DNA of 64,000 nucleotides from an uncultured virus (IMG/VR IMGVR_UViG_3300030508_000022) (taxonomy: Duplodnaviria > Heunggongvirae > Uroviricota > Caudoviricetes), in the IMG/VR virus record IMGVR_UViG_3300030508_000022, positions 1 through 64,000 of that record; one strand, written 5' to 3'. A program made the translations under genes and the position numbers. This document shows, in pieces, positions 26,141-64,000 of the stretch; positions within the stretch are counted from its first letter, which is position 1; every line of letters starts with the position of its first letter. The notes beneath the pieces are model-generated. The model was not told the DNA's origin, ran no database searches, and saw nothing but the letters and a program-made list of their open reading frames with translations.

Positions 26141-29100
26141 TCAATAATTCCCGAATCTACCGACTTCCATTCCGATGTCGTTGATGTAGGAAGCATTGAT
26201 AGATAGGTTCGTAGCCATACCAGCCATTGACGGCAAATCTGTAATACCTAGGGCTGCCATGAAGATGGCATATCCAAGGGCGTGCAGAAAGTCGTCTGGC
26301 TTGTCCTGATAGCGGCTGTAGCGTCGAATAGTGGCTCCATGAGAGTTTGTTGCGTCCTCAGTGAAGGTAGCGAGCAAATCTCTGGAATACTGCTCGAACC
26401 AGCCTCCCTTAGGAAACCGAATCCGCTGAGCCTTGATAAGAGTGAACACGATGTAAATCAGTGTTGTTCTATCTACGGTAAAGCAATTGTTGGTATTGGG
26501 CATGAAGAACTTCTTGGTGGTCCCATAGGCAATAGAACCTGTGGGCACCCCCATGTAGGCTCCAAGGTTGGGGTTCTGTACGGATCCAACGAATCCAGCA
26601 TCAGCTCCTACAATTTCAATTCTACTTCCGGTTACGCTTTTGAGGTAATCTCCGATAACATAGTGACGCTGCTCATCCGGCAATCCTGTGGGCCTAATAG
26701 CCCCTAGAACGTCGAAGCAGCCGTCTCTGTACCCGACGGCTACACCAACAGTAAAGCTGACCACCTCAGCACCGCCCCAGTCAACGCCCCCAGCTACCCT
26801 GTGGTAGATCTGAGCGTTTGGTGGTTCGTGTTGGTCTATGTCTAAGATACTAGCCTCTTTAATGTCCTTCTGAGTGATTGGAACACCGCCCTGTGAGGTG
26901 GGTATTCCTAAGCACTCTTGGAGAAATCTAGATTGTGAATATGCGCTAGACCCATGAAGTTTATTATAAATAGTTTCGATGTATCTATCGTGTGGAAATA
27001 TACGGTCTGGAACAATAATTTGGGGGACATGATACCCCTCTGAGTCACGGTGGATTGGGTCGTATTCGTACGACCTAATCCACTTTCCTCTGGTCACATC
27101 TATTACCTTGCCACATTTTATGCAGCAAATCCCTTTGATCTGAATCATTTCCAAAACTCTTCCAGCTTCGGTAGGTACATTTTCGTGCCCACACCCACAT
27201 TTCATTATCCACTCGTTTTGAGTCGAGTTTTCAAAAAGCTTGGTAAGTGTGTTGTCAACGCCACGAGCGGTTCCGAAATAGCTTTCGTATCGATAATCAG
27301 ATGTTCCTAATGTTTCTCTAATCTGAGGAATGAAGTCTGCATTAAGATCCTGACAGTTGTGTACGCCTATCCCGTTAGCAAAGAATGTGTGGTTCTTCTC
27401 TGTCTCTATATCATATACATCATCTACCCCAAGGTAGGCAATCCCGACGATGTCTGAGAAGTCCTCAGTGCTTCCTTTTTCTTGAGTTTGTTTTCTCTCC
27501 TTTTTTGTATCTGTTTTGCATGGCGCACTGGATCCTGTCTCAGCCTCATTCCGGTTTCCCTTCCCCTTTTTCTTGAAGCCTCTAAGTTCTCCCAGTATCT
27601 CTCTTTGCGTTTTGTGTTCATGGCGTCTCGATTCCTTTCCACCCATCTTGTCTTTACTCCCTTCTTGGCGATAGCACTGCACTTCTCGCCACAATACGGT
27701 TGGATCCCATTCCCCACGAATGGTTGCCCACAGAGCCTGCATGGCTTCTCCAGGTTTACTTCCTGATAGGCCCACTTGTACTCCATCTCTGGGAATGAGT
27801 ATATCCTGGTGTTTTCTAAGAGCACCTTGGTCCCAACCACATCCACTGTGATTATGTAATACGTCTTGTTCCTGCTTTTCTTCTTTATTTTTATGGCTTT
27901 GCAGCTCACTCCATTTTCTTTTAACCAGCTCACCAATAGACTGGATTCCTCTTTTGAGAATGATTGGGTATTGAACACAAAACTTCTCCCTGTATTGGAT
28001 AGGCTCCCATCGTCCATCATCCACCACGCAATCGCTTCCCAGGTCAAGTGTTTGACCCATTCTTGAGTTACCTTCTTCTTTGGCAAGCCCTTGTCTGAAG
28101 TACCCGTGTAGCAGATCTGGTGTATAGAGTCTAGGCATGGAGCACTTAGGGATCCAAAAACGCAGCTTTTCTCCCCCCAGCCCCTGTTCTCTACAATCTT
28201 GGGCTTTGTCCTCACTAGGTCCCCCAACACTTCCGCTTTGCGGTTGCAGTATCGTTCCTGACACTGGCCGTGTGTTACGTAATACTTGGGGTGGGATCTT
28301 GGAGTGGTACCACCCACTTTTGTCAGACAGGAATCTCCCAATAGTGTCCCAAAGACCATTTGCTCTTGACTGTGATTTAATGGCCTTAGCTTTGCTTGCT
28401 CTTGGGCATCTGTTAGCTTCATGCCACGGTAGTATTTCTGCAAGGTATATCCATCCCCTGTCGGACATGATTCGCTCGTTCCCTGTGCAGTCGAGGTGGT
28501 CCCCGTTGGATAAAATGATTCGCCAGACGTGTCGTTTGCCTTTGTGCTTAATTGATTTAATTGTGTCATATTCTAATTTTAACGTTGATTCGTTAAATCC
28601 AACAATACGATCCCCTGGTTTTTTGTCAACTAGAGTGTCAAGATTGATCCCGTCAAATAGGGCTGTAGAGCCCAAATTGCATTCATCCAGGTAAACTTCA
28701 TCGGTCGTCACCCCCAATGAATTAGATACGTTATTGAAGCAAGAAATGCCCACAAATCTGCTCCCACTTACATAACTCTTTTCGTTGACATTAGCTGTAC
28801 AGGTGTTATTCACAACCGGCCATGGCAATAGCTTGCCCTGGGTCATTGGAGCCATAAACATTGAGTGTAGACGCTGAGTATAAATGCTTAGTGGGGCAAC
28901 ATACATTACTCTAAAATATGACCTCCACCAGCAGTTCATTAATATAGATGCACTGATGCTCGTAGATTTTCCTAATTGACGAGCGCACATGTAAACATGC
29001 TTTCTAACCTTTCTGGTTTTGCTAAAAATCCCAGCAAACATCGGACGACGGTGTAAAATATTTAAAGGTTTCCCTTGGAAACTTATACTTGCGGGTACTA

Positions 29101-29185
29101 GGTCGACCAAGTCGATCTTGTTTGATAGTTGGCCATACAGGCGCTCCAGTTCCTTATCGCTTACTGGGATGATTTGTTTGTCCAT
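26141..29185 (-). CDS. terL: Terminase large subunit, intein-containing
   Basis: Walker A 'ARQLGKS', Walker B 'VYLDE', motif III 'YFGTAR', nuclease 'GGVDWGG' and 'PDDFLHALGY'. Confidence 0.92.
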   Translation of the reverse strand: MDKQIIPVSDKELERLYGQLSNKIDLVDLVPASISFQGKPLNILHRRPMFAGIFSKTRKVRKHVYMCARQLGKSTSISASILMNCWWRSYFRVMYVAPLSIYTQRLHSMFMAPMTQGKLLPWPVVNNTCTANVNEKSYVSGSRFVGISCFNNVSNSLGVTTDEVYLDECNLGSTALFDGINLDTLVDKKPGDRIVGFNESTLKLEYDTIKSIKHKGKRHVWRIILSNGDHLDCTGNERIMSDRGWIYLAEILPWHEANRCPRASKAKAIKSQSRANGLWDTIGRFLSDKSGWYHSKIPPQVLRNTRPVSGTILQPQSGSVGGPSEDKAQDCREQGLGGEKLRFWIPKCSMPRLYTPDLLHGYFRQGLAKEEGNSRMGQTLDLGSDCVVDDGRWEPIQYREKFCVQYPIILKRGIQSIGELVKRKWSELQSHKNKEEKQEQDVLHNHSGCGWDQGALRKHQDILIPRDGVQVGLSGSKPGEAMQALWATIRGEWDPTVLWREVQCYRQEGSKDKMGGKESRRHEHKTQREILGELRGFKKKGKGNRNEAETGSSAPCKTDTKKERKQTQEKGSTEDFSDIVGIAYLGVDDVYDIETEKNHTFFANGIGVHNCQDLNADFIPQIRETLGTSDYRYESYFGTARGVDNTLTKLFENSTQNEWIMKCGCGHENVPTEAGRVLEMIQIKGICCIKCGKVIDVTRGKWIRSYEYDPIHRDSEGYHVPQIIVPDRIFPHDRYIETIYNKLHGSSAYSQSRFLQECLGIPTSQGGVPITQKDIKEASILDIDQHEPPNAQIYHRVAGGVDWGGAEVVSFTVGVAVGYRDGCFDVLGAIRPTGLPDEQRHYVIGDYLKSVTGSRIEIVGADAGFVGSVQNPNLGAYMGVPTGSIAYGTTKKFFMPNTNNCFTVDRTTLIYIVFTLIKAQRIRFPKGGWFEQYSRDLLATFTEDATNSHGATIRRYSRYQDKPDDFLHALGYAIFMAALGITDLPSMAGMATNLSINASYINDIGMEVGRFGNY
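27356..28681 (-). mobile_element. Intein (442 aa) inserted directly after Walker B
   Basis: Begins C169 'CNLGSTALFDG', block B 'LDCTGNERI', ends 'VYDIETEKNHTFFANGIGVHN' followed by +1 Cys. Confidence 0.92.
27424..28422 (-). CDS. LAGLIDADG homing endonuclease encoded in +1 frame inside the intein
   Basis: 'MVFGTLLGDSCL' and 'IAWWMMDDGSL' motifs, 'FNTQSFSKEE', C-terminal CxxC...CxxxC; probable start MKLTD at 28422. Confidence 0.88.
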   Translation of the reverse strand: MKLTDAQEQAKLRPLNHSQEQMVFGTLLGDSCLTKVGGTTPRSHPKYYVTHGQCQERYCNRKAEVLGDLVRTKPKIVENRGWGEKSCVFGSLSAPCLDSIHQICYTGTSDKGLPKKKVTQEWVKHLTWEAIAWWMMDDGSLSNTGRSFVFNTQSFSKEESSLLVSWLKENGVSCKAIKIKKKSRNKTYYIITVDVVGTKVLLENTRIYSFPEMEYKWAYQEVNLEKPCRLCGQPFVGNGIQPYCGEKCSAIAKKGVKTRWVERNRDAMNTKRKERYWENLEASRKRGRETGMRLRQDPVRHAKQIQKRRENKLKKKEALRTSQTSSGLPTLG

Positions 29186-60716: not shown

Positions 60717-61184
60717 ATGGCAAAGAAGATTAGTGTAGAGGAGTTAGATACAGTCTTGACTGCTTCAGTCCAGGACGGAGCAGAGAAAGAAAGAATTTTA
60801 GCAGAGGTTCGTAATTATATTGCGAATCTTGCAAATGATCAGGACGAGGCAGAGCCTGCTGTAGAGACCAGGGATGTAACAATCCTTTTTGGCTCTCAGG
60901 AGACCATTGACGTGATTGATACCGACGCGATTGTAGCGTTCACTGTCAAAATTGAAGCCACCTCAGATCATAACCAGATAATTCCTCATTTGCTAGCGAA
61001 GGCCAGTATTTTTAATCAGAACACAAGGCGTAGAAACTCTCGTATCCAGAATCTGGGCGAGACTTTCAACACCCTCAGTCCTAAAAGGCACTTGGATGAG
61101 TTTCCTAAAAAGATCCTCACCAAGCAAGCGTCCCTGGTCATCAAGACCACGAACCATCCTATACAGAGTGTTGTTGTGCGTTGA
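60717..61184 (+). CDS. Hypothetical protein
   Basis: 155-aa ORF. Confidence 0.65.
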   Translation: MAKKISVEELDTVLTASVQDGAEKERILAEVRNYIANLANDQDEAEPAVETRDVTILFGSQETIDVIDTDAIVAFTVKIEATSDHNQIIPHLLAKASIFNQNTRRRNSRIQNLGETFNTLSPKRHLDEFPKKILTKQASLVIKTTNHPIQSVVVR

Positions 61185-61329
61185 CTACGGAGATGCGCTA
61201 CAGCCGGTGTAACCTTTTACGGGGTTATGCCGGCTAAGCGCCTTTCTATAGAAAGCGCCTAGTTGTGGTTCTTGATTAAAAACTAACGCTGGCTCCTGGC
61301 GTCCAGGTAGCAAACATAATATACACATT

Positions 61330-61575
61330 ATGGCAAACGGTAACATTCGTATCACTGTCTCCTTCGGAGGCAACCAGCTCCCAATCAATGGTCTCCCTGT
61401 GGGGTCCACTCTGAGCTGCATTCGTGCCAACCGCAACGTTTCTGCAGCCCTCGGCTACAGCAACGAGAACGTGGAGTTCGTCCTCAACGGCTCCCGCGCA
61501 AGCGACAATACTGTCATCTCTGACGGCGATGTCGTTAACGTTCAGCACAAGGCACACGAGAAGGCTTCCGCCTAG
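61330..61575 (+). CDS. Ubiquitin-like (beta-grasp, ThiS/MoaD-type) protein
   Basis: 'IRITVSFG...GSTLSCI...FVLNGSRASDNTVISDGDVVNV'; upstream of E2- and E1-like genes. Confidence 0.8.
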   Translation: MANGNIRITVSFGGNQLPINGLPVGSTLSCIRANRNVSAALGYSNENVEFVLNGSRASDNTVISDGDVVNVQHKAHEKASA

Positions 61576-61592
61576 TCTCGTAGGCTAATTTT

Positions 61593-61650
61593 ATCCCCCA
61601 ATCTCGTTGCGCCGAGATTGGGGGATATCTTAGACATTTATTTTTTTTAT
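61593..61650 (+). terminator. Hairpin + T-rich tract after Ubl gene
   Basis: atcccccaatctcg/cgagattgggggat stem then tttatttttttt. Confidence 0.55.
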
Positions 61651-61673
61651 ATCCCACAAGTTCTTCAAAACAC

Positions 61674-62483
61674 ATGAAACCTCTTATTATCCTTAACGAA
61701 GACGGTGTCGCATACCGTATGGAGCCATTCGCTCTACAAAATGTTAGTGAGATCATCGAACGAGTCTCAAATCAGTCGTTCTCAACCATCAAAAAGCATA
61801 CGACTTTTGAGGTTGCAGAATCAGTTGGATCATCAGGCGTACAGTACAAAAGGGTGCCATTCCACCTGTCCATTACGAAGAAGAACGAAGCTGTCTACTG
61901 GGGATATATTCCTGGGATTGTCTTTGATACCTCCTTCCAGATTGTGGAACACAGTGGAACCCCTCGATTGATCGCTGATTTTACTCGCTCAGCAACTGAC
62001 GCATTCCAGGATAGGATTTACTGCTCATCGGAATCTCTCAGTACTTCGGATTGCAAGGTTCGGTTCTTGGTTGCTATCTCTCTTACTCCAGGGGGGTCAG
62101 GCAATTACGAAATCAATGCATATTTCTGCTTCCAACTTTTTGATGTGAAAGCGGGGTTAATTATGGGCAACTTCTTGCCGTGTATCCCAAACGTCTTCGC
62201 TGACGCCAGGGTTTGCATGGGTAGTGCCTTTGATAAGTACACCAATCCTGTCAAAACCTCGGATGAAGAAATCCAGCGTACCCTCAAGTCATTCTTTGAG
62301 AGCCGCATGAATTCGGATCTGATCACTCAAGGTGCAAATCGCATCGAGTTGGCAGACCAGCTAATTGGGTGGAACAGAGAAAAGAAGCAGGTTGCTCCCA
62401 TCAAGTCCGCCAAAACAATCCTCACCGTCAAAGTTGGAAACTACTATCTTGATGGCCTTCCATACGCCACAGTTGGTTGGTAA
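61674..62483 (+). CDS. Prokaryotic E2-like (Prok-E2 family D/PRTRC-B-like) conjugating enzyme
   Basis: 'LPCIPNVFADARVCMG' matches E2 PN-x5-6-C active site; 'FFESRMNSDL'. Confidence 0.75.
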   Translation: MKPLIILNEDGVAYRMEPFALQNVSEIIERVSNQSFSTIKKHTTFEVAESVGSSGVQYKRVPFHLSITKKNEAVYWGYIPGIVFDTSFQIVEHSGTPRLIADFTRSATDAFQDRIYCSSESLSTSDCKVRFLVAISLTPGGSGNYEINAYFCFQLFDVKAGLIMGNFLPCIPNVFADARVCMGSAFDKYTNPVKTSDEEIQRTLKSFFESRMNSDLITQGANRIELADQLIGWNREKKQVAPIKSAKTILTVKVGNYYLDGLPYATVGW

Positions 62484-62492
62484 TACACATAC

Positions 62493-63599
62493 ATGAAATC
62501 CTTATTCCAAGAAATGTTGGAGTTGCCTGGATTGCCTGTCAGTTCCGAAACTATTTTCGGAGCTACTCGTCGGTCCAGGATGTTGTCTCTTCTTGACGAC
62601 TTTAGTTATCTCAAAAAAAATGGAGGGGAGCTGAAAATATTCCCACTTACTGCAGAACAAAAAGCGGATAGGCGGGACCGAAGTTTTATATCTAAGGAGC
62701 TATCCGAGTCCTTTGAGATTGGTCAATTCCAGTGCCAAATATTCGATGCAGTTGTTAAAAAGCTGGAAGCAGAGGTTTCCAGAGGAGAAGATTCTCCTTG
62801 GGCTTTGCGATTCATTGCAGAGATGCCTCGACAGCAGGAGCCACAACAGGCTCCTGTACCACAAGCCCTACCAGAGGTTCGAGTGGAGGAACAACCCCTT
62901 ACGGGAGTTTTCCCAGCTGATGCATTCAATACTCCAGTGGCGCAGCAGGCTACTCCAGCAGTTGTTCCAGTTGTTGCCCCAGCTGCCTATCAGCCTACAA
63001 CTCCACGTCAACAAGTTCCCATTGCACCAATTATTGGTGGAATTGGGGCTGAAGTAAATTGGGCGGATATAGCTGAGCCAACACCTGCACCTAATCGTGG
63101 TGCTCCTCAGGTTACAGATGGATTCGTCGATATGGATCCAGCTGACTTTGAGAATCTTCCTACGGCAGCTCCTACTACCCCTCCTCCCGCTCCCACGGCA
63201 GCAGAGGCAGCAGAGGCGGGAGAAGTTCCTCGCGCTACCATGGCCAATGAAACTCCAGCTGTTGGCGAAGGTGCGATTACAGGATTTGGTGAAATTCGTA
63301 CACCTGAGGCTGTGGATCAGATTGTTACACCACCAGCTGTTGGTACTACGGTGGTTCAGGTTACTGATGGTGCAGGTGCCGCTGGATTGTGGCATACACC
63401 AGCTGTTGGTAATCAATTCTTTGGAGTTAATCAGGGAGATGACCACATAGTGTTTACCCCTACTGATCACAACCTGTTCATTACTGCTGATAACAATCTG
63501 GCAGTGGGTGATACTCCAGCTCCAGTAGCTGATGTTCCAGATGTGCAGCAGGCAGTTCGGAATACAGTTCGTAGGCGCGTACGCGCAATAAACGAATAG
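62493..63599 (+). CDS. Hypothetical protein, small N-domain plus long P/A/T/Q-rich disordered region
   Basis: 368-aa ORF between E2 and E1. Confidence 0.65.
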   Translation: MKSLFQEMLELPGLPVSSETIFGATRRSRMLSLLDDFSYLKKNGGELKIFPLTAEQKADRRDRSFISKELSESFEIGQFQCQIFDAVVKKLEAEVSRGEDSPWALRFIAEMPRQQEPQQAPVPQALPEVRVEEQPLTGVFPADAFNTPVAQQATPAVVPVVAPAAYQPTTPRQQVPIAPIIGGIGAEVNWADIAEPTPAPNRGAPQVTDGFVDMDPADFENLPTAAPTTPPPAPTAAEAAEAGEVPRATMANETPAVGEGAITGFGEIRTPEAVDQIVTPPAVGTTVVQVTDGAGAAGLWHTPAVGNQFFGVNQGDDHIVFTPTDHNLFITADNNLAVGDTPAPVADVPDVQQAVRNTVRRRVRAINE

Positions 63600-63620
63600 T
63601 ATACGCACTAACTGAAAGTT

Positions 63621-63657
63621 AAATGGGTCAGTGCCGAAAAGTCGGCACTGACCATTT
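63621..63657 (+). other. Strong intergenic hairpin
   Basis: ggtcagtgccga-aaag-tcggcactgacc. Confidence 0.65.
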
Positions 63658-63699
63658 CTTAGATAAACAAAAATCAACCAAAAAACAATTAATCAAAAT

Positions 63700-64000
63700 A
63701 TGAAACAGAACTACTACGTCATCGGATGTGGAGGGGTATGCAGCTATTTCTTGCCAGCATTCCTCAAGACCCTCAATTACTCCAAGGAGTTTAAGGGGTC
63801 AACAGTAACCCTAGTTGATGGCGATACAATCGAGGACAGGAATTATGAGCGTCAGCTCTTCGCCAGCGGATTGACGGGAATGAACAAGGCAGAGGCCTTG
63901 ATGTCGGTTCTTGGTGAAAGTCACCCCAACATCAATCTCAAGACACATTCCGAATATGTGACTGGATCATTCCCCATTAAGGATGGTTCTGTTGTCATTG
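63700..64000 (+). CDS. ThiF/E1-like adenylating enzyme (5' part, runs off window)
   Basis: Own translation: MKQNYYVIGCGGVCSYFL...TLVDGDTIEDRNYERQLF...GMNKAEAL (GxGG, D-x-D, N-x-x-RQ, K motifs). Confidence 0.9.
   Translation, partial: MKQNYYVIGCGGVCSYFLPAFLKTLNYSKEFKGSTVTLVDGDTIEDRNYERQLFASGLTGMNKAEALMSVLGESHPNINLKTHSEYVTGSFPIKDGSVVI

Follow-up and report, generated by a model that had tools for sequence, protein, structure and literature searches.

The locus and its gene content

The window, i.e., the whole 64,000-nucleotide stretch of DNA that we analysed, corresponds to the first 64,000 bases of a virus record of 73,391 bases (G000), and the contig continues beyond it. Contigs of up to 186,740 bases, 22 in all, carry an identical E1, so the genome of this phage is probably near 190 kb. 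The window encodes a terminase, DnaB, a primase, a DNA polymerase, a RecA/UvsX-like recombinase, and a tail-fibre-like protein; a tRNA scan of the window found none. The terminase large subunit (1014 aa, one open frame, positions 26141-29185 of the minus strand) carries an intein at residues 182-610 (Pfam, 1.3e-9). Nested in the intein DNA, on the same strand but in a different frame (27424-28569, minus strand), is a gene for a 381-aa LAGLIDADG endonuclease (1.5e-24) that starts with an ATG of its own, and neither frame has a stop codon over 1.1 kb. A putative homing endonuclease that is overprinted and separately translated within an intein looks unusual.

The end of the window holds a cassette that exceeds it, with the gene order Ubl, E2, 368-aa protein, E1, 537-aa protein, and JAB, all on the plus strand. 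The Ubl precursor (81 aa) is encoded at 61330..61575, the E2-like protein (269 aa) at 61674..62483, and the 368-aa protein at 62493..63599. They are followed by an E1 of the ThiF family (237 aa, 63700..64413), whose first 100 codons are inside the window, and, outside it, by the 537-aa gene (64414-66027) and a JAB/MPN peptidase (403 aa, 66035-67246). The original prediction had described a phage-borne Ubl conjugation module of four co-oriented reading frames, all of which lie where it placed them on the plus strand. One of them, the ThiF/E1 that it reported as missing from its track of reading frames, is confirmed as a gene cut by the window, and the JAB/MPN peptidase that it expected just past position 64000 is there. 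The module itself thus stands, with a full set of Ubl, E2, E1, and JAB genes and conserved catalytic residues; the surplus of Ubl over the enzymes that was part of the same claim is unsupported.

This surplus had been deduced from a hairpin and T-tract after the Ubl gene. The hairpin is real (61592..61627, plus strand; 15 bp, perfect, z -5.6) and its stem is the longest of the 6 perfect stems of at least 10 bp in the contig. However, the T-run begins about 9 bases past the stem instead of directly adjoining it, a terminator scan does not list this hairpin as a canonical terminator, and equally strong folds occur 5' of the Ubl gene (a long stem-loop at 61185-61329, z -5.2) and 5' of the E1 gene (63626..63653, plus strand; 12 bp, z -5.7). 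Hence, the hairpin leaves an excess of Ubl unsupported and says nothing firm on stoichiometry.

The position of the cassette differs between phages: 5' of a family A polymerase in a clade of 40-kb phages (one locus confirmed), 5' of RecT in a group of 50-60 kb (one locus confirmed), and after the replication block in the present phage. These neighbours point loosely to a function in the early or replication phase. A PHROGs search with nine proteins of the region gave nothing under E 0.001, and PADLOC gave weak Cap2 and JAB matches only. The starts at window positions 60717, 61330, 61674, 62493, and 63700, and at contig positions 66035 and 67361, have A-rich tracts on their 5' side and lack a clear Shine-Dalgarno motif, which weakly suggests a host group that does without such motifs.

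Enzymes and accessory proteins

The E1 matches Pfam ThiF (1.4e-10), and its Cys170, encoded outside the window, is invariant in 36 homologues. The best NCBIfam matches of the E1 and the JAB are PRTRC models (PRTRC_ThiF at 1.1e-10 and PRTRC_A at 6.4e-5, both under the cut-off), and the E1 also matches the NCBIfam ThiF and MoeB models, again under the cut-off. The JAB has E68, H125, H127, S135, and D138; its HxH..D motif is kept in 32 homologues, and its profile aligns with PRTRC A (hhalign, 90.7%). In the E2, the motif PNVFADARVC is intact, as had been claimed, and both Cys181 and N213-x-D215-L216 are invariant in 25 aligned homologues. The closest type is the prokaryotic E2 family D/PRTRC-B: Pfam Prok-E2_D is matched at 0.0019, under its cut-off, and the profile aligns with PRTRC B (hhalign, 93.9%) with the cysteines in register. 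The His of PRTRC B lines up with Asp215, i.e., the downstream His of the family is replaced. The structural model of the E2 is weak (pLDDT 58) and its matches are low (top Z 4.8), but comparison with 48,161 chains yielded UBC/UEV folds for all of the top 12 matches. The cassette is related to that of PRTRC/class 6d but divergent and phage-borne, and it scores under the PRTRC cut-offs.

The 368-aa protein, described originally as largely disordered, is of low complexity from about residue 113 (54% P/A/E/T/Q), but residues 1-112 look ordered. Related cassettes have at its place a fast-changing gene, mostly of 100-190 aa, and the N-terminus of the 368-aa protein does not match the gene at this place in the 40-kb relatives. 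The 537-aa protein is without a family: it has no homologue among 6,966 candidates, no usable Atlas match, and no link to the gene family that occupies the same place in relatives.

A Ubl family ending in Lys-Ala

The 81-aa protein had been proposed to be a beta-grasp protein, which agrees with its predicted structure (pLDDT 83.7); in the PDB, this structure is matched best by ubiquitin, SUMO, and Ubl domains (TM 0.63-0.73). The Atlas clusters nearest to the protein consist of 93-100% viral sequences and lack a Pfam family. The absence of a C-terminal Gly was also correctly noticed: the protein ends in HKAHEKASA, its last Gly is G66, and the final 15 residues contain none. In four canonical PRTRC loci, the Ubl ends in Lys-Gly in 4/4 cases, two of them with tails, and this Lys-Gly is in register with the Lys-Ala of the present family (K78-A79, codons at 61561 and 61564). 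Since the two line up, Ala79 would occupy the site of the reactive Gly, K78-A79 is the predicted mature end of the Ubl, and Ser-Ala would be a tail.

The family was collected by several routes. E1 alignments retrieved two overlapping sets of viral loci (59 and 56) and 108 metagenome loci, of which we kept 80, and the Ubl is present in 139 of the 195 pooled loci. Among 50,697 records of cultured phages there was a single, partial E1-like match, and two peptide patterns matched a single locus in 185,579 prokaryote genomes. Lys78 is the sole invariant column in 75 aligned Ubls. Loci found via E1 or JAB provided 63 distinct Ubls, most of them from one clade of ~40-kb phages and hence not independent: 61 have Lys-Ala (59 stop at the Ala) and 2 have Lys-Gly.

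A search with the single Ubl sequence found 2 proteins only, and a Ubl profile run over 1.84 billion representatives found 212 at E 0.001; all further counts in this paragraph concern the best 150 of these 212. The residue after the conserved Lys, in 188 domains of 149 proteins (leaving out P0055 and two partial domains), is Ala in 149, Gly in 32, Gln in 3, Thr in 2, Cys in 1, and Asn in 1, a count biased to Ala because Lys-Ala rows seeded the profile and the script tried Lys-Ala/Gly first. Of the 119 final domains with Ala, 54 stop there, and 36, 21, and 8 have, respectively, 1, 2-5, and more extra residues. Tandem precursors of two to four repeats account for 35 of the 149 proteins, and nearly all of their repeats close in Lys-Ala or Lys-Gly; internal repeats close in Lys-Ala in 30 out of 39 cases and resemble polyubiquitin-like precursors. 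Repeats closed in this way have the form that would be expected of a precursor processed by a peptidase. The tandem precursors are found among P0006-P0139 and in L196, L218, and L245, and one of them pairs an Ala-ended with a Gly-ended repeat.

Two Ubl alignments were too variable for a search of loci, and we therefore used DNA patterns. Of 45 stretches matched by a pattern that stops at the Lys, 18 are Ubl contigs, with Ala in 15, Gln in 2, and Asn in 1; E1 and JAB adjoin the Ubl in 17 of them, and the 18th contig is cut. A pattern blind to the whole Ubl end found 11 Ubl contigs among 16 (9 Ala, 1 Gln, and 1 Asn), none of them new. In the sequences at hand, the missing glycine is a trait of the family and not a peculiarity of one Ubl. 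The original prediction had guessed a cut at EKA|SA and offered an Ala-terminated or a protease-trimmed tag as two options. The guess is supported by the conservation of Lys-Ala as the end, with 0 to about 30 residues after it, and both options fit, not as alternatives but as parts of one pathway in which trimming would expose Ala79.

Several Ubls have tails after Lys-Ala (L203, L208, L212, L231, L251, and L284), e.g., TEVLA, TVELALA, TAELAHA, VRELVMA, and NELELVAA. We take these to resemble ssrA-type C-terminal degradation signals, and an untrimmed precursor carrying them may be unstable.

Covariation between the E1 and the end of the tag

Residue 13 of the E1 (GxGG-X), a Val in the present cassette (codon at 63736), tracks the last residue of the tag in 101 distinct E1-Ubl pairs; 45 of 146 E1s were left out for lack of a Ubl in the locus or of a readable P-loop. 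Firm Ala tags have Val13 in 82/82 pairs. The 14 Gly tags have Ile13 (7), Thr13 (4), Val13 (2), or Asn13 (1), and the four tags with a large end (Gln in 2, Asn in 1, and Glu in 1) all have Gly13. One weakly identified Ala tag pairs with Thr13. We set aside Fisher tests of this association because of the relatedness of the rows and because the two Gly-Val pairs disappeared from view in clustering at 70%. An E1 P-loop pattern that left residue 13 free matched 55 stretches and contributed one locus with a Glu-ended tag and nine with Gly-ended tags (eight distinct E1s), and a pattern for Gly13 E1s had at least 118 stretches, with only two loci among the matches listed, both already known.

In the E1 tree, the Ala-ended and the large-ended systems form, together with the E1 of the window, one supported clade (100/99). 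When the 33 E1s of this clade are compared over 444 columns, a single one, residue 13, tells the 4 large-ended systems apart from the 29 Ala-ended ones. The JAB and the E2 have no such column, and an exclusive column of any kind exists in 24 of 3,060 quartets. The best tree does not unite the four Gly13 systems in one clade, but a single origin is not rejected (AU p 0.18); these four Gln/Asn/Glu systems provide only 2 independent pairs (sign test p 0.5) and may descend from one change. Their cassettes are complete, with a short tail after the end residue: L199:6992-7537(-) with Asn, L210:6992-7213(-) and L240:6992-7213(-) with Gln, and L264:1890-2150(+) with Glu. Two large phage contigs (L249:10386-10586(-) and L286:1431-1631(+)) encode a weakly matched 66-aa Ubl ending in Lys-Ala. 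Their E1 has Thr13 and falls outside the main Ala clade, and they may represent a second origin of the Ala end.

The Cap2 proteins of CBASS show a similar tendency at the same P-loop position, in rows that are few and related: Val in 9 of 11 loci with an Ala-ended CD-NTase, with Leu in the other 2, and Leu or Ile in 3/3 loci with a Gly-ended one. We left out L428 and L432, where the end is neither Gly nor Ala, and L433 and L440, where no CD-NTase was seen. Near-identical CD-NTase tails swap both residues in the pairs L434/L435 and L438/L441. Leu also occupies this position in the NEDD8 E1 subunit, whose tag ends in Gly. The exceptions to the trend are Val13 with a Gly tag in 2 phage loci and Leu with an Ala end in 2 CBASS loci.

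This covariation of an E1 residue with the tag end is new here. Its simplest reading would be a steric gate beside the terminal residue, and from its place in the P-loop we infer that residue 13 touches the last residue of the tag. It suggests that these kits really attach tags via non-glycine ends. It also bears on a different view of the active end, in which the JAB cuts after Lys78, Ala79 opens the pro-tail, and Lys is the residue activated. The invariance of K78 is in line with this, as is the precedent of BilC, which takes a single terminal Ala, a blocking tail, off BilA (PMC10557695) and so counts against Ala as the active end. However, relatives carry Gly, the canonical reactive residue, at the position of the Ala, and it is the P-loop of the E1, and no column of the JAB, that covaries with the residue following the Lys. 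A residue that is discarded should be invisible to the E1, and we regard an active Lys end as improbable.

Proposed pathway and alternative functions

We think it likely that the cassette encodes a reversible protein conjugation via alanine, of PRTRC/6d descent. The JAB would cut after Ala79 and remove Ser-Ala, and the E1 would adenylate the carboxylate of Ala79. Val13 would make space for the methyl group, at a position that is Ile in half of the Gly-type E1s found here. The Ubl would then move as a thioester from Cys170 of the E1 to Cys181 of the E2, which has the N-x-D-L motif in place of the family His and would join it to lysines of target proteins, and the JAB could take it off the targets again. 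Trimming has precedents in BilC (PMC10557695) and BubC (PMC11601596). As for its role, we suggest weakly, and with as many reasons to doubt it as to believe it, that the tag marks host or phage proteins in the early or replication phase, with a non-Gly end that the Gly-specific E1s and JAB peptidases of the host handle poorly. A switch to Ala may plausibly have served to escape these enzymes. The host takeover or counter-defence that the original prediction considered possible gained no support. More tentatively, and somewhat less probable than its contrary, a widespread phage lineage of beta-grasp tags may have left the glycine rule, for Ala and then for Gln/Asn/Glu. One E1 P-loop residue would act as a size gate, with Ile/Leu suited to Gly, Val to Ala, and Gly to large ends, and with tags orthogonal to the activating and de-conjugating enzymes of the host, serving the phage against it.

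Other functions are less probable. The Ubl could stay unconjugated, as a non-covalent cofactor or a decoy plugging the host E1 or JAB of Bil or CBASS defences, which would suit a Ubl without Gly, the lost His of the E2, and the variable tails. We consider this distinctly improbable: the Ubl has its own E1 and JAB beside it in all but the cut one of the pattern-found contigs, the catalytic Cys of both E1 and E2 are kept, and the E1 covaries with the tag end. There is similarly little chance that the Ubl is activated and then transferred to a non-protein acceptor (lipid, nucleotide, DNA, or a small amine); no E3 or target gene was identified, the accessory genes change fast, and such an acceptor is possible for Cap2 as well (PMC10097602), but Bil and Bub, the assayed bacterial systems with Ubl, E1, E2, and JAB, form protein conjugates (PMC10557695, PMC11601596). 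Finally, a sulfur carrier of the ThiS/MoaD type for cofactor or nucleotide thiolation is very improbable: Pfam ThiS is matched by 15 of the 75 Ubls at E 0.01 and the E1 has its ThiF and MoeB matches, but an E2 is present, the best models for E1 and JAB are those of PRTRC, and a check of 10 genes for cofactor or sulfur-transfer functions found none above the cut-off apart from the E1, with no thiazole or molybdopterin synthase, rhodanese, or desulfurase above the cut-off among the scanned neighbours.

Comparison with known systems

A terminal glycine is treated as the rule for beta-grasp modifiers.

Bil and Bub keep the Gly, and in the literature that we searched the exception with Ala is the substrate of Cap2, which is not a Ubl. 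This literature, mainly open texts from which absence from print is not established, showed no phage-borne or Ala-ended beta-grasp system, and neither did a term search of a jumbo-phage review (PMC7824862). Ubl architectures have been described (PMC11601603). The present set adds well over a hundred divergent phage-type Ala-ended Ubls, along with side branches that end in Gln/Asn/Glu and a single E1 residue that matches the ends. It permits a single-mutation test of E1 end specificity, and provides an entry point to the PRTRC/6d class and possibly orthogonal tagging pairs.

Like type II CBASS with its Cap2 and Cap3, the cassette has a JAB partner and a predicted E1 chemistry that in Cap2 conjugates through a C-terminal Gly or Ala (PMC10097602), and the same P-loop position leans to Val with Ala. 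Unlike the present cassette, where E1 and E2 are separate and the tag is a beta-grasp protein without a nucleotidyltransferase match, CBASS has a CD-NTase as tag, fuses E1 and E2, and serves host defence (PMC10097602; bioRxiv 2022.03.31.486616, which provides a Cap2 structure). BilABCD and Bub share with it a beta-grasp tag, in tandem in some cases. Theirs is trimmed by a JAB before activation and then conjugated, as we propose for the present tag, but both expose a conserved Gly, have other E1/E2 families, and are bacterial operons (PMC10557695, PMC11601596). Bub uses Tyr/Ser oxyesters (PMC11601596), unlike the lysine linkage proposed here.

The closest relatives are the PRTRC systems (NCBIfam TIGR03735-37), which correspond to the class 6d operons of Iyer, Burroughs and Aravind 2006 (PMC1779556). 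The present family differs from PRTRC in its gene order, Ubl-E2-y-E1-x-JAB, and in being almost wholly on phage-like contigs. None of the 75 Ubls matches Prok_Ub at E 0.01, and the Ubl aligns with four PRTRC C proteins at 1.2% (hhalign). The 368- and 537-aa proteins do not match the small PRTRC E and F profiles or the NCBIfam PRTRC models, with remote homology possible, and ParB is absent among the scanned neighbours. The definition of class 6d asks for a highly conserved Gly in the Ubl and for a conserved His downstream in the E2 (PMC1779556), and since the present Ubl has Ala and the E2 has Asp at these places, we do not file the cassette as a member. With a stand-alone Ubl ending in Lys-X and an optional tail, a family D E2, a ThiF-type E1, and a JAB, it is nevertheless, by its predicted components, a system that works like PRTRC/6d.
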